Source of the DNA: Octopus vulgaris
Lineage: Eukaryota
NCBI GenBank assembly: GCA_951406725.2
Contig: OX597823.1
Location: 101,556,001 to 101,620,000, forward strand
DNA length: 64,000 nt
Direction: 5' to 3'
A program made the translations under genes and the position numbers. Positions 11,163-57,220 of this stretch are shown here, one piece after another; within the stretch, counting starts at the first letter, position 1; every line of letters starts with the position of its first letter. The notes beneath the pieces are model-generated. The model saw only the letters and a program-made list of their open reading frames with translations, made no database searches and had not been told where the DNA came from.

Positions 11163-11445
11163 AATAAATTCTCGTATATTTCATCTTTCGTCTTTCGTTT
11201 GCCATATATATATATATATGTGTGTGTGGGTGTGGATGGTGTGATGTGGTGTGGTGTGCATGTGTGTGTGCATATGTGTGGATAGATAAATAGATAAATT
11301 GATATATTGATTGATAGGTAAGTAGGTAGGTATGTACATAAATAGTAAGATTGAAAGTTAAATAGATAGATAGACACGCAGACTGACATATATGCAGGCA
11401 GACAGACAGACAGGCAGATAGATAGATAGATTGATAGATAGATAA

Positions 11446-11536
<91 letters not shown>

Positions 11537-11837
11537 TAGATAGATAGATAGATAACTTTTTATTGTAGCCACACAGGGCTAAACACAGAATAAAAATGGA
11601 CGAAATACAATGTAGAATTTTTTCTTTTCGAGGTGGGATGGGTGGGGCACAAAAAAATGTTTGATCAATAGGGATCTGTGGGTTTTGTGGTGTATAAAAA
11701 AGCAATATATATATATAAGGTTCACAGTTTAGGTGTAGCCTTGGAAAGAAAAACCTACAAAAAAGACCAAGGTCACCTCAGGCAGTTCGAAAATGAACAC
11801 ATGAGTAAGTCGCCTTACTTCTCGTTGTCTCTTTTGG

Positions 11838-14800
11838 TTACAGATTTATGCTTAAAATAGTGTCGGCTTTCATACTGACCATTTTTGCCACTTTTACCCA
11901 CTTTTTATTAAAACATTCGTTCGACAAAGCCTTCCTCTCTATTCTCACCCTCCTTTTCAAGTGGTACTTGAAAAAGTTGACGAGAGACTGACCAGAGAGG
12001 AAGGTGTTTGTTTGCAGTCCTTTCAAACGCGTCCACCACACACATTATTTCGCCATAGCCATCAGCGTAACGAAAACCGTTTTCCCTTCCCGTTTAAAGG
12101 AAGGTGGTGGAACAATATTCACGATAGACTCGGCCGATAGGCGGGCCCGACCTACACGTGACAACAGCTGTTCGACGAAGGTCCACAGCTCTGAAATATC
12201 TGGACACTGCATGAGTGCGTGCAGAACGGTTTCGTCGCTCTGACCGCATCTCGGGCAGGTCGGTCCGGTGATGGTTTTCGAACCGTGCCTGTAGCTCTTC
12301 TCTCGAACAGGTAGTGCGTCTCGATAGCACTGTCAAGCCAGGGATTTCTGGAAGTTATCCATAGGCCCCGGCCCGAAGGTCGTCCTGAACAGGCGGGTTA
12401 GGAATTTCTCGTCGTCGCCCAGGTTTTCCCCCTGTGTGTCGTCGGACCTCCCCTCCACTAGTCCTCTATAGAACGCTTTAGTCGTTTGTAAGTTGCACAA
12501 GTTTGACCCCGGTCGGCAGAGCTGCTGTAGAGCTCGGTCCCAATCGCCCAGTTTCGGTCTCTTCTTGATCCACGTTTGCAGTTCGGTCAGTGAGACGAGC
12601 TGCGGGAAGGCGCGCCTAACAAACGGCGCCCACACCTGTTCACCGTCGTCGATGAAGTTCCAGAGATGTCGCAGTCTAAGCGCATGCCTGCGCATCATCA
12701 ACCACGGCATGCCCAGTCCTCCATTCAACGGATGTTGACAGCAAATGGACTTCCTCACCATCGGAACGCCACCCTTCCACAGGAAGCGGAAGAGTATGCG
12801 TTCAAGTTTGGTGATGGTGGCGTCGGGACAAGGTACGACGGTCAGGCGGTAATCGATGACGGATGCGATGTACGCGATCGCCACCTCCGCCCGGCCTTTT
12901 AGGGATTGCTTCCTCTCAGCCCATTGCTGGGTGAGGGTGGCCAGCCTAGTCGTTATTTCGCCCCAGTTCTTCTCCATTTGGAGGTCTGGACCGAACCAGA
13001 CCCCGAGCAATTTAACCGGTCCGTCCGTCCAGCGTCCCACTACTGAGCCGCAGTCGGACGGCATGGGCTTGCTTCTCCAGGACCCGAGAAGCAAACCCAC
13101 TGACTTTTCCGGGTTAATCTTCGCTCCCGTCACCGTTTCGTATTTTCTTAGTGTCTCGCCTATCATCTGGATGTGATTGTCGCTCGACACTATGACGGTG
13201 ACATCGTCCGCATATGCCGACACGCTCGTCCTGCAACCCAGTTCCCGTGGGATGCCCCTCAGTGTCGCCAGCTTCCGCAGTAGCGGCTCGAGAGTCAATA
13301 CATACAGAAGCGCCGACAGGGGACACCCCTGACGGACCGAACGCGTGATGTCAAACTGTTTCAACAGGTGACCGTTCACCCGAATCACCGATCGGATGCC
13401 GCTATACAAGGCAGCGATCCAACCGCAGAAGACGGGACCGAAGCCAGCCGCCAAGTACCGATGGTCGACCCTATCGAAGGCTTTAGACTGATCCAAATTG
13501 ATCAGCGCCCCACCCATGCCAGGATCCTTAACTACCCTGTCCACAACGTAGCGCATCAGATGGAGGTTGTCATGTATGGTTCTGCCCGGCACGGCGCATG
13601 TTTGCGCCCTGTCGACCAGTTTACCAATGACAAGCGCCAACCTCTCGGCTATTACTTTGGCCAGAATTTTCAAATCTGCGTTGAGCAGAGTGATGGGCCT
13701 GAAAGTATCTATAAAATTCCCCTTGTTTGGGTCTTTCTTCAGCAACGTCACTGCACCACGGCTCACGAAACGCAGGATTCTCCCGTTTTGTTGCCAGTTG
13801 CAGTAGACTGATGCCAAGAGGTCGCCAAACAAGTCTGGCATTTGACAATACAGCTCATAGGGTAAACCATCCAATCCAGGCGACTTATCCCTCGCGCAGC
13901 CCGCTATCGCATCTCGCACGTCAGCGGCTGTGATGGGACTTTCACAACACTCCACTTCTCTTGCCGAAAGCCGCGGCAGGTCGGTCAAGTAGGCAATGAA
14001 ATCCATCCCGCGTTCCGACCCACCACTCGCACCAAACAGTCGAGCAAAGTGCTGTTGAAAGGCCTCACACATCCTTTCGGGTTCGAGTAAACTGCATCCC
14101 TGTTGATCTATTAGAAACCGAATGGTGGCTCTGTTGCCACGCTGCGCCTCCGCTACCCGGGCCTCTCGCGCAGCTTCGATCCCTTCGTTCCTTAAGGCAC
14201 GCATTTTAGCTCTGACGACGCAACCTTCGTGCTTGGCGTTGAGGTGTTGGTCGAGGACCATCCTCGCAGCCAGCACGTTGGTTGCGCCGCCAGTGGTAAG
14301 TGCCTCTTCTAGTTTCTTAACCAGGTCTCCCTCTACTCTGTTTCGATCTATCGCTAATTCCTTGCTAAACCTAATTGATTCCGATTTTATTGCCATTTTC
14401 AGGGCGTACCACCAGCGGTTGTTAACGACGGCTACCGTCAGCGCCCTCTTAATTAACTCGCTAATCCGGTTCCTGTAAACCTGTCGCGCTAAGTGCGACG
14501 TGTTCAGTTTCCAGTAACCGGGACCCTGCCTATGAGTTTTATCCAAGTCGAGCGTACACGTCACAAATTTGTGATCTGTGTAGCTGACTATTTTAAATTG
14601 TGGACATCCTACACTATCCCTATCCGCTGTCCTTTATAGAATTCTATCTAGATAAGATCTCGACGATCCAAGCGGTTTGTCCAAGTCCACGTTGGCACGT
14701 TCGGATGGTCGAGTCGGAACCTGTCAGACAAATGGAAACGTTTCAGTAGGTCTTTGAGGCACTTACACCCCCTTCTATTCCTATCCATTCCCACATAATC

Positions 14801-15250
14801 TAGATGCGTGTCCAAGGTAGCGTTCCAATCCCCTACTAACAGTAAAGGTCTAGACGTACTCAGGAAAACCTCTAGACGTCTGAAGAAATCCGCCCGACCC
14901 GTTAAGGACGGTGCATAAACTGCCATCAGACGGAATGCACACCCATTTCTGCCATCCACGTCCAAGACAACCAGCCTACCCTCCGGGTCTAGGAATATTG
15001 TTCTTACTTTTACATTTAGACTCTTTCGAAAAAGCACCGCGGTACCTCCACCACCCATGTTCGGCAGACAGGGAGAAATATAAATGTCAAATTGTTTGCC
15101 AAACATGGACGCGAGTGCCCGCGTCTTGCTGAGTCTGGTTTCACTGATAGCTACTATATCCACGTTCAGTGACTTGATGTCGTTTAGAAGGTAACCTTGC
15201 TTCCAAGCCGCCGCCAAGCCACGCGCATTCACACAACCTAATTTAAGCAT
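11838..15250 (-). pseudogene. Tx1 ORF2 of copy A: APE endonuclease + reverse transcriptase + C-terminal zinc finger, disrupted
   Basis: MLKLGCVNARGL, ISETR, YAPS, GDWNA, YTDHK; PGLDG, FRPITLLN, LDQSKAFDRV, VRQGCPLS, YADD; CPRCG...HALMQC; broken by stops/frameshifts near 14640, 12333 and 12040. Confidence 0.9.
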
Positions 15251-15317
15251 AATTGACGTTTACGAAAATTGTGTTTCATACACAAACATTGGAAGAGACA
15301 AGAGGCAAGAGGGAAGG

Positions 15318-17196
15318 TCACTTACTCATTTCGAAAGTTTCATTTTTTTCTTCTTCTTTTGTAGTGACTTTGATGAGGTGTTTGTATAGTTTTTGGGAGT
15401 GGAATCGTTGAAACCCGCCTACCGCATTTGGAAATATTATTTTCAGTGTATGATGTTGTGTTTGTGTTATGTGTACAATTTTTATATGCTTCGGTGGTGT
15501 GGTGCGAGGATGATTTTTTGTCTTAAAGTCATCTTCACAGATGTCCGTGTTGGATACAATGTAATCCATAAATTTTTTTTATTGTCTGTGTCTATTGCAG
15601 TTAGTTGTGTGTGTGGTTTTTGCGGGTTCATTGATTTTTTGATTGTCTAAGGGGATGCTGTACGAAGTTAAATATCTCCCTGCTTTACTTCCTTGTTTGG
15701 TGGGCTTTTTTTATCTTTTCCTTTTACCCCCTGTGGCTATTTGCCATTCCGTCGAACTTTCGTCGTCCGACGAATCAGAAGGGAGTAAAGGCAAAGCATT
15801 TGTGTTAATATGTATGCTTGAAGAAATTGTTGATGTTTTGTGCGGTGTTTGTGTTGTTATGGTGTTAGGGGTAGAATTTGTCTTCTCGTCACTGTTTTCT
15901 GTCTTTTTAATTGTCGTCCTCGGTGTTGGTGTTGGTCTATCTTTTAGTTCAGCACGTTGAATTGGTTGCGTCGTCAACGGTGATTGTGTTGGTACTGTTT
16001 CTTTTCTTGGTGATGTTTTTGGGGTTTGTTTGCTGGTTTGTTGTTTTTCTTGGCATTGTTCCATAATTGAGTGTGTTGGTGTTGGTGTTGGTGTTGGCAA
16101 CAAGGGTTTTTTTTTATTTGTTTTCTGATTTGTTCTTTCTTGTTTTTTCTGTGCTAGAGCGCACTTGGCAATTAAATGTTCTGGGCTGCCACAGTTGTAG
16201 CATCTAGGCTTTTTGCCTTCTGCCACAACATATAGGCTTTGCCCATTTTCTAAGTGGATCCTATCGGGTAGGTTCTCGATAGAGGCCCCCTCAATCTGGA
16301 TTGTCACTACTATTGTTTTTCCACCCCAATTGTCGTTTAGGTACACGGCGGTTTCTAAAATATTGATCTTTTTTTAAATGGTAACTGATTGCCCCTGTTA
16401 TCCATTTGTTCGGGATCTCGGGGGCTACATTTTTAATCGTAATTCTACTCACTCTCTGGCCTTTGAAATAAGGTACCATTTTGATATCATCATTTTCCAA
16501 AGACTCGGTAGAGTGAGCTTTTGCCACTTCCTGTTAGAGAAGCGGACCACTACTGAGTTAAACTGGGGACCCCAGTTTATATATTCTTTTTTTTCATTAT
16601 GTTTTTTGAAAATTTTTCTATATCCGTTTTTGTAATCTGTTCATTTTGTTTTCTCTTATAATTTTATATATAATTGTCTTATTTTCTATTTGTTCCTTTA
16701 TGTGTTGAGGTGTATGCAGCACTAAATCTTGCCCACGGGTTGTAAAGAGTGCTCTCGTTTCTTTTAGCTCTTCATTTGTAAATGTTACTATTTCTTTCTT
16801 CTGAGGCAGAGTGTCAGCGAAATTTACTGGTGTTGTTGATTTTTTTATATTAACATCTTCACTATTAGATAGTTCATTTTTATTGTTGTTCTTGTTGTTG
16901 TTGTTTTTGTTAATAGTATTCGGGTGAGTTTAATTTTTATCATTTATGTTGGTCGTGGTTGTAGTGGTGGTGGAGGTGTTGGTGGTAGCAGTAGTAGTCT
17001 CGTTGTTGTTGTTGTTAGTGGTGGTGGTGGTGGTGACTGGGCTGTTACCGCAAGTGGTTGCAGCGTTCACTACCACGTCATTCAGGTTTGCACTTTGCGT
17101 GCATACGTTCTTTTTGTCTCCTAGCGTTTCCAGACTAGGAAAATGGTGGTCCATAAAAGAACGCGACCAGCGTTCTACAATAAAATTTCTCGACAT
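15318..17196 (-). pseudogene. Tx1 ORF1 (gag-like) of copy A, disrupted
   Basis: MSRNFIVE start, Thr/Asn-rich region, NFADTL..., CYNCGSPEHLIAKC knuckle, WQIATGGKRKR, C-terminal HPRTTPPKHIKI domain. Confidence 0.85.
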
Positions 17197-18740: not shown

Positions 18741-19116
18741 CTCTTTTACTTGTTTCAGTCATTTTGACTGCGGCCATGCTGGAGCACCGCTTTTAGTCGA
18801 GCAATTCGACCCCAGGACTGATTCTTTGTAAGCCTAGTACTTATTCTATCGGTCTCTTTTGCTGAACAGCTAAGTGACGGGGACGTAAACACACCAGCAT
18901 CGGTTGTCAAGAAATGCTAGGGGGACAAACACAGACACACAAACACACATACATATATATATATATACATATATACGACAGGCTTCTTTCAGTTTCTGTC
19001 TACCAAGTCCACTCACAAGGCTTTGGACGGCCCGGGACTATAGAGGAAGACACTTGCCCAAGATGTCACGCAAAGGGACTGAACCCGGAACCATGTGGTT
19101 GGTTAGCAAGCTACTT
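18741..19116 (-). mobile_element. tRNA-derived SINE, 3' portion (interrupted by the 19117-21338 insertion)
   Basis: Minus strand has B-box GGTTCAGTCCC, body, internal (TA/TG)n and tail gactgaaacaagtaaaagag; uninterrupted head at 38133-38297. Confidence 0.85.
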
Positions 19117-21338
19117 TATTTCAAAACATTTGCCATAAAGGCAGTACACAGATTAAGTTAGCTTTGCGGGCTGGACGAGGACATTAATGAGGTGAATGAT
19201 AATGAAAGAAAGATGATAAGGATGGAAGAAGACAAAAAGCGCCCGCCGGCTTTCGCTTCTCTAAAACATTGTTCTTTTTAAAGATAAACACAAAACGAGG
19301 TATTAAACCTCTTACAATTTTTCCAATTTTTGGACTTAGCAGTCCATTATTAATACAAAACGAGGTATTAATCCTCTTACAATTTTTCAATTTTTGGACT
19401 TAAGTCCATTACTAATAATACATATCGTCCTCGAAATAGCTTGTGCCCGCGCCCTCCACCATCAACCACGCCTCCCTCAGAACGTAATCAAGTTCCGAGT
19501 TTGCGTCGCCCGGGACCAAGTTATAATCTTCATTGAGCTCCTTTAGCCCAAGCGTCACGTCGAACGCCACGGCCTCCACAGCTACCTGCGGAGGCCATTC
19601 GGGGTCCTGTGTGAAGGCTAAAGGTGCTCCCTTGTAGTGCTCTTCCATCACTTTTTCAATTTCTCCTCCTCTATAGAAGAGGACCAATACGTTCAGTTCT
19701 TTCGTTGGCGGCACAGTTCCCGCCAACGGTATTCCTTCTCTTGTCGGTGGCACAACCCCAACCGACGTAGTTCCGGGACATTCCGGTGCTACACTGACAG
19801 CCGGTAATGTCCCGTTTTTCTTCCTCTTTTTCTTTTTTTTCCCTTTTCAACTGAGGGAGGGTGCGTCTCCTCCGTGGCTGGAAGATTCGCCTTCCTCTCC
19901 TCATCCCTATTATCCTTTGGTGAGCACCCATTGTTGCTCACCTTCCTCTTCGGCCTCTGTTTGAGGAGTCCTCTGCTTTCTCGGCCGTTGTCGTTCCCTC
20001 TTCTAGAGGGGTTTTACTTAACTGTTCCGGGATCCTATTTTGTTCCCGAGGACAGTTCTTCTTTATGTGGCCGGACTCCAAGCACCGATGACACTTAGGG
20101 GGGCGACCCTCAAGCATCACCGGGTACCTGCACCCGGCTATTTTCAAAAAATCTGGAAGAACCAGATTGGCTGATTGGGTCCACAGGGTCAAAATTGCTT
20201 TTGACCCAACCCAAGCAGCCGTAGGAAGAACTTTTACATTGAAGAGCTTAGTTTCGCTGTCACCCAGACTCCGGCGGATAGTCTCCTCTATCCACTCGGG
20301 TTCTATGTCGGGTGGTAATCCGCATATCCAAGCTTTCATCAATTTCTTTTTTTGTACGTGGGCAGGAATAAGATTTCCTTACCCTCCAGGGGTTTGCTAG
20401 CAAATTTGCAAGCCTCTTCAGGGGTGTCAAATAGCAACCACACCGTTGCATATTTGACACCCCTGGAAATGAATTTAATTGTTGGCAAATACTCTTCCAA
20501 CTCCTCCTCAATTGCCGTCTTTTCGAATAAGGCGATGGTGTCGAGTGCCTTGGAGTAGGTTCTCAACACCACCGTCCTATCTTCACGGTCTTTTAACCAC
20601 TTTTTAGGTGGTATGATTTCCCACTCCAAAATTTTGTTATTTTTCATTGCCATGTTTTTTTTTTAAATATATTCAAATTAAACTAAAAAAGCCGGAAGAA
20701 AAAAGTTCAAAAGTTCAAATAAAATTTGATAGATTTTTGGAAAAACAAAAAGGAGAAAGCACAACAGAAGGGAAGAAATCAACGGAAAGTCGCAATAAAG
20801 AAAAAAAACAAAATGAAGTTCAATGAAGTTCAAAAGAAAGTTAATAAACAGAAAAAACACAGCAAAAATATTCTGGCCTTGCGGTACTCCCGGCCTGGGT
20901 TGAACCTGGAACGCCGCAACTGCAACACAACCTCCACAAAAATGGATCCGAAAGGTAATCCAATAGTGGCTTATTTTTATAATTTTTTGCGAAGTAGTAG
21001 TTTTCACAATTCATAAAAGTTCTTCACAGCACAATACAATTCTCACAATTACGTGAGAAAAATATTTACTCACTTTATCGAAGACGGATACGCCCCCAAA
21101 AATTTTCTCAGCGAGAAAAATATATTTGCCACATGTCGGCAGAATCAGAATTCTGAATCCAGTAGGACTTCCTGCCTGTAAAAAACAATTCTCAACAAAA
21201 ACTCCGACTGGACCCAGAAAACAGAATCTTACCTTACATGGGGCTTCCAAAGTTTTCAATTCAAGACGGCTTCAATAGCACATCTTCACCGCTTCAGTGC
21301 CAAACACAACACTGTCTCGCACATGCGCAGAAGCAACC
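19117..21338 (-). mobile_element. ORF1-only (HAL1-like) non-autonomous Tx1-related retroposon, 2.2 kb
   Basis: Perfect 15 bp TSD GTTAGCAAGCTACTT at 19102-19116 and 21339-21353; single gag-like ORF; no EN/RT; Tx1-like 3' stem-loop. Confidence 0.85.
19412..20653 (-). pseudogene. Tx1-type ORF1 protein (putative RRM-like region + CCHC zinc knuckle), frameshifted
   Basis: DRTVVLR...KYATVWLLFDTPEEA...FLPTYK...GLPPDIEPEWI...WVGSK...EGRPPKCHRCLESGHIKKNC aligns by eye with ORF1 of copies D/E (KRTIL...QFNTVVVRFHNQEEA...IPYYR...NVPPEIPPKWI...WVGKK...DGRRPRCYICGSEQHLKKDC). Confidence 0.8.
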
Positions 21339-21376
21339 GTTAGCAAGCTACTTACCACACAGCCACTCCTGCGCCT
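21339..21376 (-). mobile_element. tRNA-derived SINE, 5' head fragment (A-box)
   Basis: Minus strand AGGCGCAGGAGTGGCTGTGTGGTAAGTAGCTTGCTAAC continues seamlessly into 19101 once the insertion is removed. Confidence 0.85.
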
Positions 21377-26241: not shown

Positions 26242-26389
<148 letters not shown>

Positions 26390-26448
26390 TGAGGGAGGAA
26401 GGGAGGAGTGGGAGATAGACAGATAGAGAAGGGGAGGGAGAGATACAC

Positions 26449-26505
<57 letters not shown>

Positions 26506-26567
26506 TGAGGGAGGAAGGGAGGAATGGGAGACAGACAGATAGAGAAGGAGAGGGAGAGATACAGATA

Positions 26568-29557
26568 AGTTTCTTTATTGGCCACACAGGGCTGCACACA
26601 GATGGGACAAGTTACAAGGTAGAACTTTTCTTTTGGGGGATGAAAAAAACAAAAAACAAAAGAAACAAACAAAAAAAGGGGTGGCGTAGGTTTTCGATCA
26701 AGAGGGATCGTAAAAGGGAAGAAAAGAACAAAAAAATAAATAAATAAATAAAATAAAAAAGAAAAAAGAAAAATAAAAAAAAGAAAAGGAAAAGGAACAA
26801 AAGAAAAGAGAAATGAAAAAAGAAGAAAAAAGGGGAAAAAAGGGGGAAGAGGAAAAAAAACGATCAATAGGGATCGTGTATCACAGTGTTATGATAGATG
26901 GTGTAAAGGGGAAAGCAAGTAAGGTTTATCCGTGGGAAGAAAAGCCTACGAAAAAGACCACGGTAACCTTGGTCAATATTGTTATATGTTACCACATTTG
27001 TTTGCAAGTGGGTAACCCTCTGTTTTCAATTTCTGGGTTCATAGGATTATGCTCACGTCATTCATACGTGCCATCCTTGCTACATTCACCCATCTTTTTT
27101 TAAAACATTCGCTAGACAAAACTTGCCTCTCTACTTTCACTTTCCTTTTCAAGTGGTACTTGAAGAAGGTGATGAGAGATTGACCAGAGAGGAAAGTGTT
27201 TGTCTCCAATCCTTTCAGACGCGTCCACCAGATACATTCTTTCACCATAGCCACAAGGATGATGAAAATAGCTCTTCCTTCCCGTTTGAAGGAAGGAGGC
27301 GTGACAATATTGACGATAGACTCAGCTGATAAACCGACTCGTCCCACACGTGACAGCAGTTGTTCGACATAAGCCCACAGGTCGGAAATTGTTGGACACT
27401 GCACGAGGGCGTGCAGAACGGTTTCGTCGCTCTGACCGCATCTCGGGCAGGTCGGCCCCGTGTTTCTCGAGCCGTGTCTGTACAGCTTATCCCGAACGGG
27501 TAGCGCTTCTCGGTAGCACTGCCAGGCCAGGGATCTCTGGAAGTTGTCCATGGGCCCTGGCCCGAAAGTCGTCCTGAACAGGCGGGTCAGGTACTCCTCG
27601 TCGACGTCCCGGTTCGCCCCGAGCTCGTCGTCGTACCTCCCCTCCACTAATCCCCTATAGAATGCTTTGGTTGTGTTGAAGTCACTCAAGGTCGCCCCAG
27701 GACGGCAGAGTTGCTTGAGAGCAACGCGACACTCGCGGTGCCATTCGCCCTTCCTCGGCCTCTTTTTGATCCACGACTGCAGTTCGGTCATGGAGACGAG
27801 CTGCGGGAAAGCGTGCCTCACAAACGGCGACCACACCTGTTCACCGTCGTCTACGAAGAGCCTGAGATGTCGCAGTCTCAGCGCGTGTCTGCGCATCATC
27901 AACCACGGCATGCCCAGCCCTCCTTTTAACGGGTGTTGACAGCAAATGGATCGCCTGACCATCGGGACGCATCCTTTCCACAAGAAGCGAAAGAGAATGC
28001 GTTGTAGTTTGGTGATGGTAGGGTCGGGACAAGGCACGACGGTCAGGAGGTAGTAGATGACGGACGCGATGTACGTGTTCGCCACCTCCGCCCGACCTTT
28101 CAGGGACAGTTTCCTCTCGGCCCATTGCCGGGCGAGAGTGACCACCCTACTCGTTATCTCGTTCCAGTTCTTCTCCACTTGGAGGTCCGGACCAAACCAG
28201 ACCCCGAGCAACTCAACCGAGCCGTCGGTCCAGCATCCCACGGCGGAGGTGCTGGTGGACGGCATGGGCTTGCTTCTCCAGGTGCCTAGTCGCAAGCCCA
28301 CTGATTTTTCCCGGTTGATTTTCGCTCCTGTCACCGCTTCGTAGTTTTTCAGTGTCTCGCCGACCTGCTCGATGTGCTCGTGGCTAGACACTATGATGGT
28401 GACGTCGTCCGCGTATGCAGACACGCTCGTCCTGCATCCCAGTTCTCGCGGGATGCCCCTCAAAGTTGCCAGCTTCCGCAATAATGGCTCGAGAGTCAAT
28501 ACGTATAGAAGCGACGAGAGGGGGCATCCCTGACGGACCGAACGTGCGATGTCGAAGGGTCTCGATAGATGTCCATTCACGCGAATTACCGAACGTATGC
28601 CTCTGTACAAAGCGGCTATCCAGCCGCGGAAGACGGGACCGAAGCCAGCCGTTCTGAGGACCGCCTCCAAGTATCGATGGTCCACCCTATCGAAAGCTTT
28701 CGATTGATCCAAATTGATCAGCGCCCCACCCATGCCAGGTTCGTTAACTACCCTGTCTATGATGTAGCGCATCAGGTGGAGGTTGTCATGGATGGTCCGG
28801 CCCGGTACGGTGCATGTTTGCGCCTTGTCGACCAGTTTCTCGATGACAAGCGCCAACCTCTTGGCTAGCACCTTAGCCAAAATTTTCAAATCTGCATTAA
28901 GCAGAGTGATGGGCCTAAAGTTATCTATTACATTTCCCTTGTTTAGATCTTTCTTCAGCAGTGTTACGGCTCCTCGGCTCACAAAACCAGGAATGCTCCC
29001 GTTTTGCTGCCAGTTGCAGTACACCGCCGCCAAGAGATCTCCAAACAAGTCTGGCATACAATTGTAAAGCTCGTAGGGTAGACCATCCAAACCCGGTGAT
29101 TTGTCCCTCGAGCATTCTGCCATCGCGTCCTGCACTTCCGCCGCCGTGATGGCACCTTCGCAGCACCCTGCCTTTCTTGTCGAGAGTCGTGGTAGGCTAT
29201 GTAGGTAGGCACTGAAGTCCACCCTACGTTCTTGCCCTCCACTCGTCCTGAACAGTCGGGCAAAAAGCTGCTGAAAGGCCTCACACATTTTACTTGGCTC
29301 GAGCAATTCGCGCCCCTGTTCATCTACCAGGGACCGAATGGTGGCTTTGTTGCCCTGTTGCGCCTCTGCCACCCGGGCCTCTCTCGCGGCTCCAACACCC
29401 TCGTTCCTTAGAGCACGCATCCTAGCTCTGACAGCACATCCTTCGTGTTTGGCGTTGAAGTGTTGGTCGAGGGCCAACCTCGCCGCCAAAACGTCGGATG
29501 CGATGCCGCTTCTAGCTTCTTAACTAGCTCACACTCTACTCTATTTCTATCTATGGC
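26568..29557 (-). mobile_element. 5'-truncated Tx1-like LINE, copy B
   Basis: RT ORF plus 3'UTR ending AATAAAGAAACT; GATA arrays on both sides; probable TSD TAC(AC)AGATA at 26560-26567 / 29558-29567. Confidence 0.92.
27039..29489 (-). CDS. Tx1 ORF2 C-terminal 816 aa (RT + zinc finger), uninterrupted but lacking endonuclease and native start
   Basis: PGLDG, FRPITLLN, DQSKAFD, QGCPLS, YADD, CPRCGQSDETVLHALVQC in one open frame. Confidence 0.85.
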   Translation of the reverse strand: MAARLALDQHFNAKHEGCAVRARMRALRNEGVGAAREARVAEAQQGNKATIRSLVDEQGRELLEPSKMCEAFQQLFARLFRTSGGQERRVDFSAYLHSLPRLSTRKAGCCEGAITAAEVQDAMAECSRDKSPGLDGLPYELYNCMPDLFGDLLAAVYCNWQQNGSIPGFVSRGAVTLLKKDLNKGNVIDNFRPITLLNADLKILAKVLAKRLALVIEKLVDKAQTCTVPGRTIHDNLHLMRYIIDRVVNEPGMGGALINLDQSKAFDRVDHRYLEAVLRTAGFGPVFRGWIAALYRGIRSVIRVNGHLSRPFDIARSVRQGCPLSSLLYVLTLEPLLRKLATLRGIPRELGCRTSVSAYADDVTIIVSSHEHIEQVGETLKNYEAVTGAKINREKSVGLRLGTWRSKPMPSTSTSAVGCWTDGSVELLGVWFGPDLQVEKNWNEITSRVVTLARQWAERKLSLKGRAEVANTYIASVIYYLLTVVPCPDPTITKLQRILFRFLWKGCVPMVRRSICCQHPLKGGLGMPWLMMRRHALRLRHLRLFVDDGEQVWSPFVRHAFPQLVSMTELQSWIKKRPRKGEWHRECRVALKQLCRPGATLSDFNTTKAFYRGLVEGRYDDELGANRDVDEEYLTRLFRTTFGPGPMDNFQRSLAWQCYREALPVRDKLYRHGSRNTGPTCPRCGQSDETVLHALVQCPTISDLWAYVEQLLSRVGRVGLSAESIVNIVTPPSFKREGRAIFIILVAMVKECIWWTRLKGLETNTFLSGQSLITFFKYHLKRKVKVERQVLSSECFKKRWVNVARMARMNDVSIIL

Positions 29558-29562
29558 TACAC

Positions 29563-38132: not shown

Positions 38133-38297
38133 ACGACGGGCTCCTTTCAGTTTCCGTCTACCAAATCCAGTCGCGAGGCTTTGGTCGGCCCGAGGCTATA
38201 GTAGAAGACACTCGCCCAAGGTACCACGCAGTAGGACTGAACCCGGAACCATGTGGTTCGTAAGCAAGCTACTTACCACACAGCCACTCCTACGACT
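38133..38297 (-). mobile_element. tRNA-derived SINE, 5' part with uninterrupted head
   Basis: ggactgaacccggaaccatgtggttcgtaagcaagctacttaccacacagccactcct is the empty-site equivalent of the 19102/21339 junctions. Confidence 0.85.
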
Positions 38298-43384: not shown

Positions 43385-43989
43385 GCTATTTTTATCATAC
43401 TTGTGGCTATGGCGAAAGAATGTATCTGGTGGACGCGCCTGAAAGGATTAGAGACAAACACTTTCCTCTCTGGTCAATCTCTCATCAACTTCTTCAAGTA
43501 TCACTTGAAGAGGAAAGTGAGAGTAGAGAGGCAAGTTTTGTCTAGTGAATGTTTTAAAAAAAGATGGGTGAATGTAGCAAGGATGGCACGTATGAATGAC
43601 GAAGCCACCTTGACTATGATTCTATGAACCATAAAAATTAATACAGAGAGTTGCTTATTTGCAAAAAAAAAAAAAGAAATATAACATGTGACTTCATTGA
43701 CCGAGGTTACCGTGGTCTTTTCCGTAGGCTTTTCTTTCCACGGGTAAACCTCACCTGTCCTCCCCTTTACACTTCATATTGACATTTCTGTGATAACGAT
43801 CCCTATTATTCACTTTTTTTTCTCTCCCCCCCTTTTTTTAACCCCTCCCCTTTTTTTGTCCTTTTTCTTTCCTTTTACGATCCCTTTTGATCGAAAACCA
43901 CCACTCTCCTTTTTTTACCCCCAAAAGAAAAGCTCTACCTTGTAATTTGTTCTATCTGTGTGCAGCCCTGTGTGGCTAATAAAGAAACA
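43384..43989 (+). mobile_element. 5'-truncated Tx1-like LINE, copy C
   Basis: AIFIILVAMAKECIWWTRLKGL...KKRWVNVARM as in copy B; 3'UTR ending AATAAAGAAACA; (TATC)n on both sides. Confidence 0.9.
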
Positions 43990-44032
43990 TATCTATCTAT
44001 CTATCCATCCATCCATCCATCTATCTATCTAA

Positions 44033-44129
<97 letters not shown>

Positions 44130-44138
44130 CATCCATCC

Positions 44139-44230
<92 letters not shown>

Positions 44231-44648
44231 CTTTTGATAGTATTCGTTGACAGATCGACTCGTAAGTTAACTACTTATTTTATTGTGTTTCTCGAAAAGT
44301 TTCGTTGTAAATTTTGCACACGGAGTGTGTAAGACACCCAGCTGTCGTCTGGGTGTGTTTTCCGGGGGGATTATGCCCCTAGGGGCATTTTCAGCCTCAA
44401 ATATATTTCACAATTTTGGCTGCAATAACTTGTTTTTTTAACATAATGTCGGCGAAGCGTTTCTAGTAAATTACGAGCGCTGTTCTCTTTCTTCTCGTTT
44501 GTATCCATTGTTTACGTTCCACATTGTCGTAGTGTTGTGACTTTCCAAACGCTCAACTTTCGTTTGAGCCTGTGTTAAATATAGAAATCGCCCATAAGGG
44601 CATTTTCAATCTATTTTTATTTTTTTCTCTTGAAACAAAGAAATAATA

Positions 44649-47600
44649 ATGTCAAGAAATCTTATAGTGGAAAAATATTCTGCTATGTTTTCTGAAGAAA
44701 ACTTTCCCAGTTTGCAAAATACAATCGACAAACGCGCTGACAGTAAAATGGATAATACTCAAACCACCACCACCACCACCACCACCACGTCATCCACTAC
44801 CTCAACTACCAACAACAACAACAATGACAACAAGAATAACAACAATTGCGACACCATTTCGATATCTGCTGCCTCGGCTGTCTCTTCTGCCACTGACACC
44901 ACCACCAACAACAAAAACAACAACAACAACTCCGTTCAGACCTGTTTTACTCCAACAACAAAAACTGAAGTAAATAAACAAAAAACTGTAACCACCAAAC
45001 AAATTGACAAAAGCTACCCGACTACAGGGATAAATTATGAAAATAATTTTCCACCCCTTCCTACTTGCACAATCGAACCAAACACCAATTTTACAAACTG
45101 CAGCCAACAACAACATCACCACCAGCAACAACAATAACAAAACAACAACAAATTTCGCTGAGGCGATTAAAGAAAAAAAAAACAACAATATATTTTACGG
45201 CTCAACAAATACAGGACACGAACATTACAATAACAGAATTAGATGGTATAGTGAAGATAAACATACCAGAAGAAATATTGGAAGATGAAAAAAAAAGAAC
45301 AATTATTTATAAAATAATTAATAAGAAAACAAAAAGCCCAGAGAAGGCTACCACAAGCAAAATAGAAAAATGCTTGAAACCCATCTGGAACTACAAAGAC
45401 TATGTAACCTGGTGGAACAAGTTCGCCCACATACAAGTGGTTTTCCACACCGAAGAGTTAGCTAGACGTTTCTCAACGCTAACTCTTCATTCAGATGAAC
45501 TCCAACTTACACCAAGCTATCGGGGACAGAAAGTGACTAAGATCACTTTAAACAATGTCCCCAAAATAGCTAATAATCTATGGCTTGTAAAGGCCTTATG
45601 TGTAAAAATGACAAATTTTACTATTTTAGAAACCACGGTCACGGAGCATAAAAATAAAAACTCGACAAACGCGCTGACAGTGAAATGGATAATACTCAAA
45701 CCACCACCACCACCACCACCACCACCACCACCACCACCACCACCACCACCACTACCACCACCACGTCATCCACTACCTCAACTACCAACAACAACAACAA
45801 TGACAACAAGAATAACAACAATTGCGACACCATTTCGATATCTGCTGCCTCGGCTGTCTCTTCTGCCACTGACACCACCACCAACAACAAAAACAACAAC
45901 AACAACTCCGTTCAGACCTGTTTTACTCCAACAACAAAAACTGAAGTAAATAAACAAAAAACTGTAACCACCAAACAAATTGACAAAAGCTACCCGACTA
46001 CAGGGATAAATTATGAAAATAATTTTCCACCCCTTCCTACTTGCACAATCGAACCAAACACCAATTTTACAAACTGCAGCCAACAACAACATCACCACCA
46101 GCAACAACAATAACAAAACAACAACAAATTTCGCTGAGGCGATTAAAGAAAAAAAAAACAACAATATATTTTACGGCTCAACAAATACAGGACACGAACA
46201 TTACAATAACAGAATTAGATGGTATAGTGAAGATAAACATACCAGAAGAAATATTGGAAGATGAAAAAAAAAGAACAATTATTTATAAAATAATTAATAA
46301 GAAAACAAAAAGCCCAGAGAAGGCTACCACAAGCAAAATAGAAAAATGCTTGAAACCCATCTGGAACTACAAAGACTATGTAACCTGGTGGAACAAGTTC
46401 GCCCACATACAAGTGGTTTTCCACACCGAAGAGTTAGCTAGACGTTTCTCAACGCTAACTCTTCATTCAGATGAACTCCAACTTACACCAAGCTATCGGG
46501 GACAGAAAGTGACTAAGATCACTTTAAACAATGTCCCCAAAATAGCTAATAATCTATGGCTTGTAAAGGCCTTATGTGTAAAAATGACAAATTTTACTAT
46601 TTTAGAAACCACGGTCACGGAGCATAAAAACTGGGTGGGAAAAAAAGTAGAATTTCTTCTACATATACATCAAGAAGACATAAAAAAAATACCCACCCAG
46701 ATATGTGTATCAGACGATCACAAGTTGTATGTGGTCGTCGATGGCAGAAGACCACGTTGCTACATATGCGGCAGTGAGCAACACCTAAAAAAAGACTGCA
46801 AATCTGCCGCAAGAAAACAACAGCAACAACAATAGCAGCCGGAAAAAACCCCCAGATAAACCAGGTTTACTACCCACACCACGTTTTGCAGGAACAAATC
46901 TCACCAACCAAACAACCACACCAACTGCAGCACCAAGAACAGAAGCAACATCACCAACAACAACAACCAAGAATAAACCAACTCCCAAACCAAGGACATC
47001 TGCCAAAAAGACACTCAGAGAAAATGAAGAAACAATTACAACTCCAAATCCCCACAAAATTGAAACCCCAAACAACACAAAATACCCACACCCCACCTCC
47101 AAAGCCGCATACACCACAACCAAACGCTCACCAACCAACACCAACAACAAAATCAACACAGTCGACAATAGACCCCAATATTTTCCCTCTTCAGGCTCTG
47201 ATTCCTCTGATTTGTCATTAGACGAAGAAGACACGGAAGATTGGCAAATAGCCACAGGGGGGGAGAAGAAAAAGGGGAAAAAAAGAAAAGAAAAAATAAC
47301 ATATAAAGCAGGAAGATACACCACTCCCGAAACAAAAACATCCACAGAAAACAAACACATCAACACAAACACACCATCATCAAACCCCCCAACAATGTTG
47401 ACAGCCATAAACACAAACAACCACGACCTAATGGAACACATTAGGTCAAACACCAACATAACTGAAAACGACATAAAAACAAGTAACCATCCACACACAA
47501 CACCACCACAACACATTAAAATAATACACGTAACACAGAACACATACAGCACCCTGAAATCTCTTTACCCTGATGCAGTAGGGATAGTTCAAAAGTATTC

Positions 47601-47676
47601 ATCGAAAAAACTGTACAAAAGCCTCATAGAAGAAGACCGTGAGGTGAAAGACAAAGGACTTTCGAACAACAAGTAA
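44649..47676 (+). pseudogene. Tx1 ORF1 of copy D, partly duplicated and frameshifted
   Basis: MSRNLIVE..., CYICGSEQHLKKDC, WQIATGGEKKK, C-terminal HPHTTPPQHIKI domain. Confidence 0.85.
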
Positions 47677-47742
47677 CCTTTTCTCTCTCTCTTTCCTTTT
47701 TTGCACTTTCTTTTCGTGTGTAAAACACAATTTTATCGGAAC

Positions 47743-50700
47743 ATGCTCAGAATAGGCAGTATAAATGTACGTGGTTTGGGGTCGCCTTGGAAACAAGGCT
47801 ACCTGTTAAATGACATCAAATAACTAAATCTGAATATCATAGCCATCAGTGAGACCAGACTCCACAGCTTGCGGGCACCCCAGCACATTTTCGGTACACA
47901 TTTCAACATTTATTTTTCTCCGTGTCTACCGAGAATGGGCGGAGGTGGCACCGCGGTGCTTATCCGGAAGAGTCTGGATCTCAAAGTAAGAGCAAATTTC
48001 CTAGACCCGGAGGGTAGGCTGGTCGTTTTGGATATCGATGGCAGCAATGAGTGTGCTTTTCGACTGATAGCAGTTTATGCTCCGTCCTTAACAGGCCGAC
48101 CAGATTTCTTTCGACGTCTAGAGTCTTTCATGGGAACGTCTCGTCCTTTACTTTTAGTGGGGGGTTGGAATGCCACCATGGACACGCATCTAGACTACGT
48201 GGGCAGAGATAGCAATAGAAGAGGATGCAAATGCCTCAAAGACCTGCTCAGACGTTTCCAACTGTCTGACAGATACCGACTGGACCACCCGAATGTGCCA
48301 ATGTGGACATGGAGTAACCGTATCGGATCGTCCAGATCATACTTAGATAGAGTATTCTGTAGGACAATAGATAAAAATAGTGTAGGTTGTCCACAATTTC
48401 ATATAGTCAGTTACACAGATCACAAGTTTGTGACTTGTACACTTGACTTAGATAAGACACATAGGCAGGGTCCTGGTTACTGGAAACTGAACGCGTCTTT
48501 TACAGCACGACAGGTTTACAGGGACCGGATCAGCACATTAGTTAAGAGAGCTTTGACGGGTACCATCATCAACAACAGATGGTGGTATGCCCCAAAAAAA
48601 GCAATTAAAGCAGAATCAGTCAGATACAGTAGAGCCCTAGCATTAGACCGAAATAGAATAGAGGGAGAATTAGTTAAGGTTTTAGAAGAGGCACTTAGAA
48701 CTGGCATCGCGTCCAACGTGCTGGCGGCGAGATTGGCCCTCGACCAACACCTCAACGCCAAACACGAGGGATGCGTTGTCAGAGCTAGGATGCGTGCTCT
48801 GAGGAACGAAGGAGTTGGAGCCGCCCAAGAGGCCCGAGTGGTGGAGACGCAACGAGGCAACAGAGCCACCATCAATTCTCTTATAGATGAACAGGGGCGC
48901 GAATTGCTCGAGCCTAAAAGGATGTGTGGGGCTTTTCAACAACACTTCACCAAACTGTTTGGGACAAGTGGTGGGTCAGAACGCAGAGTGGACTTTAGTG
49001 TCTACCTGCATGCCTTGCCACGACTCTCAGCAAGAGAGGTGGAGTCTTGTGAAAGGCCTATCACAACTGCGGACGTACAGGATGCGATGGGGGGCTGCGC
49101 GAGAGACAAGTCACCAGGCTTGGATGGTCTGCCCTACGAACTTTATTGTCATATGCCAGATTGTTTGGAGGCGTCTTGGCAGCTGTCTACTGCAACTGGC
49201 AGCAAAACGGGAGTATTCTTGCTTTTGTAAAGCGAGGAGCAGTGGTACTGATTAAGAAAGACCCAAACAAGGGAGACGTCATAGATAATTTCAGGCCCAT
49301 TACACTCTGCTCAACGCAGATTTGAAAATTTTGGCCAAGGTGTTAGCCGAGAGGTTGGCGCTTGTCATCAAGAAACTAATCGACAAGGCGCAAACATGCG
49401 CCGTGCCGGGTAGAAGTATTCATGACAACCTCCATCTGATGCGCTACATCATAGACAGGGTAGTTAAGAATCCTGGCATGGGTGGGGCGCTGATCAATTT
49501 GGATCAATCAAAAGCTTTCGATAGGGTAGACCATCACTACTTGGAGGCTGTCCATAAAGCGGCTGGTTTCGGTCCAGTTTTCCGCTCAGTAGTTCGCGTA
49601 AATGGTCATCTATCCAGATCTTTTAACATCATGCGTTCGGTTCGTCAGGGATGCCCCCTCTCATCGCTGTTGTATGTATTCACTCTTGAGCCACTACTGC
49701 GGAAACTGGCGACACTGAGGGGCATCCCACGAGAGCTGGGATGCGGGAGGAGCGTGTCTGCATACGCGGATGACGTCGCCGTCATAGTGTCGAGCTACAA
49801 GCACATCGAGCTACAAGCACATCGAGCTGGTCGGCGAGACACTAAAAGAATACGAAGTGGTAACGGGAGCAAAAATTAACCGGGAAAAGTCAGTGGGCTT
49901 GCGGCTCGGCACCTGGAGAAGCAGGCCCATGCCGTCCAACAGCGTCTCCATCGTGGGACGCTGGACGGACGGACCGGTTAAATTGCTCGGGGTCTGGTTC
50001 GGTCCGGACCTCCAAATGGAGAAGAACTGGGGTGAGATAACGACTAGGGTGGCTACTCTCACCCAGAAATGGGCTGAGAGAAAGCTATCCCTAAAAGGTC
50101 GGGCGGAGGTGGCGAACGCGTACATCGCATCCGTCATCGAGTATCGTCTGACCGTCGTGCCTTGTCCCGACCCTACCATCACCAAACTGGAACGTATACT
50201 CTTCCGCTTCCTGTGGAAGGGAAACGTTCCGATGGTTAGGCGATCCATTTGCTGTCAACACCCGCTAAATGGAGGGCTGGGCATGCCGTGGTTGATGATG
50301 CGCAGACATGCGCTGAGACTGCGATATCTCCGGCGCTTCATAGACAATGGTGAACAGGTGTGGTCGCCTTTTGTGCGGCTCGCTTTCCCGCAGCTCGTCT
50401 CCTTGGACGAACTACAGTCATGGATCAAGCAGAGACCGAGGCTAGGCGAATGGCACCGCGAGTGCCGCGTTGCTCTCAAGCAACTCTGCCGTCCGGGATC
50501 GAACTTGTGCGACTCCATCACAACAAAGGCATTCTATAGAGGATTAGTGGAGGGGAGGTGCGACGACGAACTCGGGCAGAGTCTGGGCGTCGACGAGGAA
50601 CACCTGACCCGCCTGTTCAGGACAACTTTCGGCCCGGGACCTATGAACAATCACCAAAGATCCCTGGCCTGGCAGTGCTATCGAGAAGCATTACCTGTTC

Positions 50701-51159
50701 GGGATAAGCTCTGCAGACACGGTTCCAGACACACTGGACCGACTTGCCCGAGATGCGGTCAGAACGACGAAACCATTCTGCACGCACTCGTGCAATGTCC
50801 AACCACTTCAGACCTGTGGGCTTATGCCGAACGGCTGCTGTCACGTGTGGGACGAGTCCGCCTATCGGCCGAATCTATCGTTAATTTATTGCTCCGCCCC
50901 CTTCCCTCAACCGGGAAGGCAAGGCAGTTTTCATCGTACGGGTGGCCATGGTGAAAGAATGTGTGTGGTGAACCCGAGCGAAAGGATTAGAGACAAACAC
51001 TTACCTCTCTGGCTCATCAACTTTTTCAAGTACCACTTGAAAAGGAAGGTGAGAATGGAGAGGGAAGTTTTGTCTCGCGAAAGATTCAAAAAAAGATGGG
51101 TGAATGTTGCAAAGATGGTGCGTGCGAGTGACGAAACCATTTTGAGCATGACCCTGTAA
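47743..51159 (+). pseudogene. Tx1 ORF2 of copy D (APE-RT-zinc finger), disrupted
   Basis: MLRIGSINVRGL, YLDRV, YTDHK, QGCPLS, YADD, CPRCGQNDETILHALVQC; stop at 47821 and several frameshifts, including a 16 bp duplication at 49795-49826. Confidence 0.9.
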
Positions 51160-51882
51160 ATCGTAAAAAAGAAAGAGAGAGAGCATTTTGCTCTCATGTG
51201 GTTATTTCCTCCCTGACTGAGGTTCCCGTGGTCTTTTCTGTAGGCTTTTCTTCCCACGGATGAACCCAATCTTGTTTTATCGATGATTCTTATCAATGTT
51301 TCTGTGATACACGATTTTTTTTTGCCTCCTTTAGATCCCTTTTGATCGCAATCTTGCATTTATTTTCCTTTTTTTCCACGCTCGAAAAGAAAAGCTCTAC
51401 ATTTGTATTTGTCCCCTCTGTATTCAGCCCTGTGTGGCTAATAAAAGAAAGAAAGTTATCTATCTATCTATCTCGATCGATAGCATTCATTGAAAGATCG
51501 GCTCGTAAGTCAATTGCTTCTTTTATTGTGCTTTTGAAAAAGTTTCGTTTCAGTTCTTGCACACGGAGTGTGTAAGACGCCCAGCTTTCGTCTGGGTGGG
51601 TTTTCCAGAGGGGAATTTGCCCCTAGGGGCAATTTCAACCGTGATTATATATCAAAAATTTTGTTTCCATAGCTTGTTTTCACACAATGTCGCCGAAGCG
51701 TTCCTCATAACGCAAAGACGCTGTTCTCTCTCTCTCTCTGTTGCATCCATTTGTTTACGTTTTACATTTTCGGAGTTTTTCAACTTTTCAAACGCCCAGC
51801 TTTCGTTTGGGTGTTTTTTAAATGTAGAATTCGCCCCTAGGGGCATTTACATCAATTGATTTTTATTTTTCTCGAAAAAAAA

Positions 51883-53836
51883 ATGTCGAGAAATTTTATC
51901 GTAGCACAATATTCTACGATTTTTTCTAAGGAGGATTCCCCTGTTTTGGAAAAGACAGTCAACAAAGACGTTGATATAAAGAAAGATAAAACTGAAATCA
52001 ACACCACCACTACCAACACCAATGATAGAACTAACACTGACACAACAACCGTTAACAACACCAACAAGAATAACAATAACAAAAATGAAGTAAATATAAA
52101 CGACCACGATGTTTCGCAAGATTTGATTATCTCACCTAATGGTGAAGATAATATTAACATGACAAAATTAACAGTACCTGAAAAAGCTACAAACACTACA
52201 ACAACCAACAATAATTCTGATACAACAACCAACAATAATTCTGATACAACAACAAAAACACACAACGACAACAACTGCCAGAGAGAACTGTGAATTTCGC
52301 TGACACCCTGCGTCAGAAAAAAGAAATTATACAGTTCACAAATGAAGAGTTGGTGTCGACAAGATCACTCTTCACAACTTCAGGGCAAAATTTAATTCTA
52401 CACACACCACAGCATGTGAAAGAAGATGTGGAGAAGAGAACAATTTTATATAGAATTATAAAAAAAAAATTTTTTAAAAAACAGAACAGGTAACAAAAGC
52501 AGACATTGAAAAATGTGCCAAGAATATTATGAAGATAAAACAATACATAAACTGGGGTCCCCAGTTTAATACAGTGGTGGTCCGCTTCCATAATCAGGAA
52601 GAAGCAAAAGCTCACTCTACAGAAACACTACAAAATGATGAACTCATAATGATTCCGTATTACAGAGGCCAAAGAGTAAGCAAAATAAGAATAAAAAATG
52701 TCCCGCCGGAAATCCCACCCAAATGGATAACATCGGCGATATGTTATCATTTAAAATCAATAAACATTTTGGAAATCGCCGTGTTCAAAAATGATAATCG
52801 GAGTGGTAAATTGATAGAGGTCAACCTTCAAATCGATGGGTCCTCTATCGAAAACCTACCCAATATCATATACTTGGAATATAGGCAAAGCCTATATGTG
52901 GTAGCAGAAGGCAAAAAGCCAAGATGCTACAGCTGTGGCAGCCCAGAACACTTAATTGCAAAGTGCGTTCTCGGACAGAAAAAACAAGAAAAAACAAATC
53001 AGAAAACAAATAAAAAATCTCTGCTACCAACACCACCAAACCCACAACTGATGCAAGAATTAAATAGAAATATGGAACAATGCCAAGAACAACAACAAAC
53101 TAGCAAACAAACCCCAACAACATCACCAAGAAAAGAAACAGCACCAACACAATTACTGTTGATGTCGCTGCCAAATAAAGAAACGAAACCACAACCAACA
53201 TCAAAAGACAGACCAACACCAGCACCAAGGACGACAACTAAGAAAACAGATAACAGTGACGAGAAGACAAATTCTACCCCTAACACCACAACAACACAAA
53301 CACCGCACAAAACAACAACACTTTCTACAAACATACACATTAACGCAAATGCTTTGCCCTTACCCCCTTCTGATTCGTCAGACTCTTCGTCCAACGACGA
53401 AAGTTCGACGGAATGGCAAATAGCCACAGGGGGTAAAAGGAAAAGATCAAAAAAGTCCACCAAACAAGCAAGTAAAGCAGGGATATTTAACTCCTGACAG
53501 CCCCACCTTAGACAATCAAAACATCAATGAACCCACAAAACCACACGCACATATAACAGCAATAGACACACAATAAAAAACTAATGGAATACATTGCATC
53601 CAACGCAAACATCTGTGAAGATAACTTTAAAGTAAATAATCATCCACGCACTACACCACCGAAATACATAAGAATTGTACACATAACACAAACACAGCAC
53701 CATACACTGAAAACCAAATTTCCAAATGCGGTCGAGGGGGTTTCAAAAATACTAGTCGAAAAAACTCTATAAACACCTCCTCAAAGACATTTCAAAAGAA
53801 GAATAAAAAACTCAAACTTTCGAAATGAGTAAGTGA
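51883..53836 (+). pseudogene. Tx1 ORF1 of copy E, frameshifted
   Basis: MSRNFIVA..., NFADTLRQKK, CYSCGSPEHLIAKC, WQIATGGKRKR, HPRTTPPKYIRI. Confidence 0.85.
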
Positions 53837-53902
53837 CCTTCCCTCTTGCCTCTTGTCTCATTCAATGTAGTGTGTGAAACACAAATTTCTTAAACATCAA
53901 TT

Positions 53903-56790: not shown

Positions 56791-57070
56791 CCAAAAGAGA
56801 CAACGAGAGGTAAGGTGACTTACTCATGTGTTCATTTTCGAACTGTCTGGGGTGACCTTGGTCTTTTTTGTAGGTTTTTCTTTCCAAGGCTACACCTAAA
56901 CTGTGAACTTTATATATATTGCTTTTTATACACCACATAACCCACAGATCCCTATTGATCGAACGTTTTTTCTTTGTGTGTCCCACCCATCCCACATCGG
57001 AAAGAAAAAACTCTACATTGTATTTCGTCCAATTTTTCTGTGTTTAGCCCTGTGTGGCCACAATAAAAAG

Positions 57071-57131
<61 letters not shown>

Positions 57132-57163
57132 ATTATATATATATGTATAAATGTGAGTGTATA

Positions 57164-57220
<57 letters not shown>

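Follow-up and report, generated by a model that had tools for sequence, protein, structure and literature searches.

HAL1 elements have an L1-type ORF1p, a poly(A) tail and loose targeting. In the papers that describe them, these half-L1s of mammals are non-autonomous, encode ORF1p only, have several origins and have long kept their coding capacity (PMC5753468, PMC3627910). Among the telomeric Jockey families of Drosophila, the ORF1-only ones (HeT-A and others) form clades in some cases, need the ORF2 of co-targeted families and lie in head-to-tail arrays (PMC13534243). Target-specific Tx1 families include Tx1 in Tx1D, Tx1-Mar in Mariner-N4_AMi, Keno in U2 and Kibi/Koshi in microsatellites; the reported targets of the Tx1 families are DNA transposons, LTR elements, snRNA genes, rRNA, satellites and microsatellites, and the non-autonomous SINEU has a common target with Tx1-Mar (PMC4494074). 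R2 SIDE and R2/R1 SIDE are site-specific and non-autonomous and use the 3'-end recognition of a partner (PMC3414825), and box A of tRNA genes is the insertion site of Dada DNA transposons (PMC8869645). An ORF1 of the RRM plus zf-CCHC type has been described as consistent with Tx1 (PMC5203782). In octopus, OR2 is a CORE SINE (PMC4758252), and a 2026 repeat annotation reports 13 recently active L1-Tx1 families in a paper whose main text contains no occurrence of ORF1, target or non-autonomous (PMC13282606).

We analysed a window of 64,000 nucleotides of Octopus vulgaris DNA (contig OX597823.1, positions 101,556,001 to 101,620,000) that contains a 2222-bp ORF1-only unit. Its family resembles HAL1 in being non-autonomous and ORF1-only with coding capacity kept. 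It differs from HAL1 by an ORF1 of RRM-RRM-CCHC layout, the absence of poly(A), a 3' hairpin common with an autonomous partner, base-specific insertion and arrays; HAL1 proper derives from mammalian L1, whereas the octopus ORF1 has no match to the L1 ORF1 Pfam family and carries a CCHC knuckle instead. Unlike HeT-A, the family lies at dispersed interstitial targets, and its partner is nearest to L1 ORF2p rather than being a Jockey or telomeric element. The target-specific Tx1 families belong to the same superfamily and also use repeats as targets, but a SINE head is absent from their target list. SINEU encodes no protein, whereas the octopus family encodes ORF1; SIDEs are non-coding internal deletions in rDNA, whereas this family keeps a selected ORF1 that is 29% identical to that of its partner; and Dada elements are DNA transposons in real tRNA genes, whereas here a retrotransposon sits at the box-A edge of a SINE. 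ORF1-only LINEs and Tx1 elements that target other transposable elements are known separately. Their combination, together with SINE-head targeting, appears to be new: neither SINE-head targeting nor an ORF1-only Tx1 element was found in the literature searched, and a prior description is possible in Repbase, Dfam and most subscription papers, which lay beyond that search.

In our reading, to which we give a probability of about 0.85, the unit is an ORF1-only L1/Tx1-group retrotransposon with a fixed base in the SINE head; a co-located autonomous element likely supplies the endonuclease and reverse transcriptase (EN/RT) that copy it in trans, likely through the common 3' hairpin, and its RNA would be packaged by its own selected ORF1p.

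The unit in the window and its host SINE

The unit lies on the minus strand between identical 15-mers at 19102-19116 and 21339-21353. Its features, with those of the host SINE, are as follows (window coordinates).

21354-21376, minus strand: 5' part of the host SINE head; box-A-like motif at 21355-21365, whose 3' edge is the insertion point
21339-21353, minus strand: upstream (5') copy of the 15-bp repeat, in which a target duplication and an element-borne leader are likely combined so that the target is recreated upstream
20654-21338, minus strand: 5'UTR, 685 bp; its first ~340 bp are one of three interchangeable 5' ends on a common body
19412-20653, minus strand: ORF1, 414-416 aa in intact natural copies, with three 1-nt frameshifts in the window copy; two predicted RRM-like domains, a CCHC knuckle, a basic low-complexity linker and a small C-terminal region
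20052-20093, minus strand: CCHC zinc knuckle (Pfam zf-CCHC, E 0.002, below the curated cut-off)
19117-19411, minus strand: 3'UTR, 295 bp, ending in GAAATA without poly(A); tandem duplication of ~65 bp at 19284-19417
19131-19143, minus strand: hairpin with a 4-bp stem and a 5-nt loop, common to the autonomous partner and other families
19102-19116, minus strand: target sequence in the SINE, which is the 3' copy of the 15-bp repeat
18975-19101, minus strand: remainder of the host SINE; box-B-like motif at 19075-19085
38133-38297, minus strand: uninterrupted copy from the family of the host SINE, used for comparison

The initial annotation had placed the unit between the A and B boxes of a SINE, with an uninterrupted site at 38133-38297; indeed, the two SINE flanks, once joined, align with that empty copy. 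The UTRs it had put at about 680 and 300 bp, the latter ending in GAAATA without poly(A), measure 685 and 295 bp, and the unit does lack an endonuclease and a reverse transcriptase, its open frames being pieces of ORF1 and its only Pfam match zf-CCHC. Homology of ORF1 to the far diverged ORF1s of neighbouring elements was also confirmed (27% identity over 145 aa with the ORF1 at 52529, E 9e-15). The one gag-like ORF it had described is a single ORF1 region but not one open frame in this copy: compared with an intact natural copy, one A is missing in each of three A-runs (near 20354, 19951 and 19841), and these losses may be real or long-read assembly errors. A GCGCATGCG-like motif, which we take to be NRF1-like, opens several types of 5'UTR including that of the window (21318-21338, minus strand) and might be an internal promoter. 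No RNA data set is on record as containing the element; contigs from four sequencing runs cover it and are uninformative on expression, start site and polymorphism at the locus.

The host repeat is a tRNA-derived SINE: it is short, present in high copy number and equipped with boxes A and B, and its head, taken from a natural empty copy, aligns colinearly with genuine tRNA genes found in this genome, with a best score reached by 0 of 200 shuffles. ARAGORN and Rfam made no tRNA call on the SINE. At least 66,274 exact empty sites were counted in it. The unit is not a single copy, since the last 26 nt of the family were found 217 times, that is, in at least 217 copies with a common end, chimeric, truncated and deleted ones included; 201 of these ends are followed by exactly the 9-nt target. 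Among the first 100 ends listed, 89 have the exact target, and all 11 others abut a substituted one, which in one case is the 5' end of another unit. Long DNA matches to the unit are 93-98% identical (40 scored of 3255 candidates).

The site is specific. The SINE body is entered at the identical base in 30 of 30 loci from the DNA search, with the SINE head upstream in those, and likewise in 30 of 30 position-ordered copies. A junction search gave 209 insertions, belonging to several families, at the SINE target base. The family occupies interstitial SINE sites on many contigs. The suggestion that SINE or tRNA heads are targeted stands for the SINE head and not for real tRNA genes, which were rejected as targets because the distinct tRNA sequences from 30 loci (only 63 candidates scored) do not contain the target. 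Locus L330 holds seven tRNA-Cys-like genes clustered within 3 kb.

ORF1 under selection, without ORF2

Stop-free frames of at least 416 aa occur in 24 rows near the identity level of the family; no unbroken ORF was present among the 30 best DNA matches, and many copies have a frameshifted ORF1, with some frameshifts recurring. A stop-start TGATG after codon 104, present in many copies, was considered as a reinitiation signal and rejected: it hinges on 7 versus 8 A, read-through copies exist, and we treat the break as slippage or assembly error. The structure model of ORF1 is confident over most of residues 12-200, has a C-terminal region with pLDDT mostly under 50, and bears only a weak resemblance to tandem-RRM proteins (E about 1e-4 to 1e-5, low TM-scores); the CCHC knuckle lies downstream of this RRM-like part. 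Atlas features of ORF1 gave CCHC and ZCCHC3-like clusters, which we take as a lead only. Across the analysis as a whole, the best named homologues come from Octopus sinensis and Argonauta, and a profile search added relatives with neither a name nor a context.

ORF1 of the ORF1-only families is under purifying selection. dN/dS, a comparison that the initial annotation had put forward, is well below 1 in 20 of 21 family pairs (0.07-0.28) and 0.63 in the remaining one, values to be read with many dS near saturation and with cores containing stops excluded, which biases them downwards. Within the family, pN is 0.011 against a pS of 0.063 (36 pairs, 9 copies).

Full-length copies have ORF1 without ORF2, common ends in many copies and a kept coding capacity, as ORF1-only LINEs do. 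If other copies carried ORF2 between ORF1 and their end, the unit would be a simple deletion derivative; in 80 loci of the lineage, obtained from searches with two other families, ORF2 was found in none, either before the end of the element or within 1400 nt, and 73 of them end at a target junction. Because family copies at 63-67% identity filled the protein searches, a rare ORF2-bearing relative with this ORF1 could be missed. By inspection, no ORF2-like sequence was seen at 30 position-ordered 3' ends where the family alignment stops short or extends. In a tree of 45 representatives drawn from 172 stop-free ORF1 cores, which holds only 5 ORF2-bearing rows, on long branches, the 16 representative cores of this lineage form one clade (100/100) with no ORF2-bearing row inside. 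A second ORF1-only lineage (21 rows, 100/100) has a 1.5-kb unit with a 408-aa ORF, about 39% identical to the ORF1 core of the partner (L231:5774-6997, minus strand; L237-L266), and includes families at the same SINE site; an endonuclease match was found in 0 of 30 of its loci.

The families are also modular. Three different 5' ends occur on one body (L001-L030, L072, L073, L103, L107, L108, L114), and the same set contains chimeras in which the N-terminus of ORF1 comes from one family and its C-terminus, together with the 3'UTR, from another. In L040 and L090, a mini-element of about 90 bp, made of the 5' and 3' ends of the family, occupies the same site. Further ORF1-only families (L267-L286, e.g. 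L268, L281, L279, L282 and L284) lie at other targets and also in tandem arrays of their own; for some of them the target resembles the box-A edge of a second tRNA-like SINE.

A co-located autonomous element with a common 3' end

An autonomous element inserts at the same SINE base. It measures 5.4 kb and encodes a 467-aa ORF1 and a 1133-aa ORF2 with APE endonuclease (EN), RT and C-terminal zinc finger (zf-RVT) domains, and its nearest solved relative is L1 ORF2p (E 1e-63); with these features, it belongs to the L1/Tx1 group. The RRM plus zf-CCHC type of ORF1 in the ORF1-only family, together with the target preference, is as in the Tx1 clade. A homologue search with the whole ORF2 at 1e-50 returned nothing, and that with the RT region gave almost only unnamed matches, with no named Tx1 reference among them. 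Of the 108 3' ends of the autonomous element, each of the first 30 lies at the site: 29 adjoin the SINE body and the remaining one the leader of another unit. Copies of this partner are mostly 97-99% identical, compared with 93-98% for the ORF1-only copies, and the two are therefore about contemporary. A second autonomous family with the same target and the same hairpin was seen as truncated copies; since at least two autonomous families end at the SINE site, the donor is not singled out.

Between the ORF1-only family and the partner, sense-strand DNA similarity is essentially confined to the last 37 nt, and the two ORF1s are 29% identical over 196 aa, so the family is not a recent deletion product of this partner. 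Over 11 family ends, 43 of 44 hairpin cells are paired and 2 of the 4 pairs show compensatory changes; the covariation score was reached by 2 of 500 shuffles, for 4 pairs only and in related sequences. The 3' hairpin is likely the recognition signal of ORF2p, and the element co-located at the SINE base is the likely RT donor. The neighbouring elements of the window (A-E of the initial annotation) were rejected as donors: their readable ends run into (TCTA)n tracts and differ from the 3' end of the unit, which, as had been stated, is not simply a deleted copy of them. ORF2-bearing L1/Tx1-group elements at such tracts occupy window positions 11300-16830, 26300-29560 and 43390-57220, two of them in tandem.

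The 5' repeat, arrays and competing explanations

The initial annotation had read the flanking repeat as a perfect 15-bp target-site duplication (TSD). Identical 15-mers do flank the unit, but the repeat is probably not a pure TSD and is partly borne by the element. Of 70 two-ended insertions, 26 were informative on the 5' copy, which had the form of the subfamily in 23, that of the target in 1 and neither in 2; 15 of the 23 come from one subfamily with a common 1-nt deletion, and 3 lie at junctions within arrays, where the pattern is less clear-cut. Another four cases agree with the subfamily form, while the window copy itself is uninformative on this point. Thus, the RNA is the likely source of about the last 5-6 nt of the 5' repeat. 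Variants at leader positions 9-10 extend upwards through the arrays, which suggests that the first ~10 nt of the leader may be a true duplication copied from the target. An older SINE variant hosts the older families, which have that variant at their own 5' end (L209, L215, L216, L218, L227, L257, L258, L261); in L261, a new leader is stacked on part of the old one.

Four arrays that we examined contain 5, 7, 8 and 9 units in one SINE each, with the families mixed (L228-L236; up to about 19 kb). One of them includes an autonomous unit and another a unit of the second lineage, and smaller mixed arrays occur as well. Moreover, in the autonomous and related families, six copies truncated at the 5' end (L038, L049, L053, L076, L310, L321) keep the SINE head and have 0, 1, 1, 1, 2 and 7 nt in common with the target. 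Mixed arrays and truncated copies both support independent targeted insertion.

These data bear directly on the idea that SINE and insert move as one composite, through the SINE's own tail and partner, the fixed site being that of a single ancestral insertion. All full-length copies do have an identical head-element-body layout, the element passes on part of the 5' repeat, and the SINE bodies of filled sites are slightly more alike than those of empty ones (91.7% versus 88.1%), the sole result that leans towards hitch-hiking. Yet one element subfamily occupies several SINE variants, the commonest of which is not enriched (15 of 30 filled against 47 of 100 listed empty sites, by hand count), unrelated families and arrays sit at the same base, and truncated copies retain the head, so that this idea is already largely refuted and is the least probable of those weighed here. 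A recent internal deletion in an autonomous parent that had the same ORF1 and UTRs, with ORF1 left as a passenger, is also a very unlikely origin of the unit. Internally deleted copies exist (L040/L090, L042, L099), and the search for a parent covered top matches only; against this, neither the 80 loci nor the 30 position-ordered 3' ends run into ORF2 or sequence like it, families 48% identical in protein all lack ORF2, dN/dS is well below 1, and the ends and ORF are not nearly identical to those of an extant autonomous parent, as they would be in a SIDE-like deletion.

A different or several autonomous families might move the ORF1-only, site-specific element, or its ORF1p might act in trans, helping or interfering with the partner. 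The second autonomous family, with its identical target and hairpin, fits such a scheme, and the frameshifted ORF1 of many copies implies that some RNAs may move without their own ORF1p; we nevertheless consider it unlikely, because the main partner is common and matches the family in age, and because selection that spans diverged families is consistent with an advantage for the RNA that encodes the protein.

Under our preferred reading, of an ORF1-only element mobilised by the co-located partner, Pol II would transcribe the ORF1-only RNA, Pol III being unlikely because of early T-runs, and ORF1p would bind its own RNA in cis. The ORF2p of the partner would recognise the 3' hairpin, nick the SINE at the box-A edge and copy the RNA by target-primed reverse transcription, after which the target-like 5' leader of the RNA would anneal and rebuild the site for the next insertion. 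Each insertion would disable the SINE promoter, with boxes A and B left 2.2 kb apart; SINE promoters would thereby be inactivated, though, of the tens of thousands of sites, no more than a small fraction is filled. The nesting is likely that of a parasite on a parasite on a parasite, with the half-LINE exploiting a full-length retrotransposon that exploits a SINE. More tentatively, and at somewhat less than even odds, we propose that this is a three-tier, self-renewing octopod system new to description, in which Tx1-type endonucleases became specialists of SINE promoters, two or more long-lived ORF1-only lineages came to outnumber and exploit them, the 5' target copy rebuilds the site, builds arrays and has tracked SINE evolution, and the head of a second SINE serves a related lineage.

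With this family, the half-LINE strategy reaches the site-specific L1/Tx1 group, and SINE heads join the known targets of non-LTR retrotransposons. Why an element keeps its own ORF1 yet borrows ORF2 becomes tractable with young helper and passenger families that have intact ORFs, a base-precise target and a short 3' signal, and the helper endonuclease is a candidate new sequence-specific nickase. Elsewhere in the window, a near-perfect duplication of 892 bp lies at 44763-46630, and RT-like ORF fragments of another LINE, presumably RTE-like, are found at 61737-63612.
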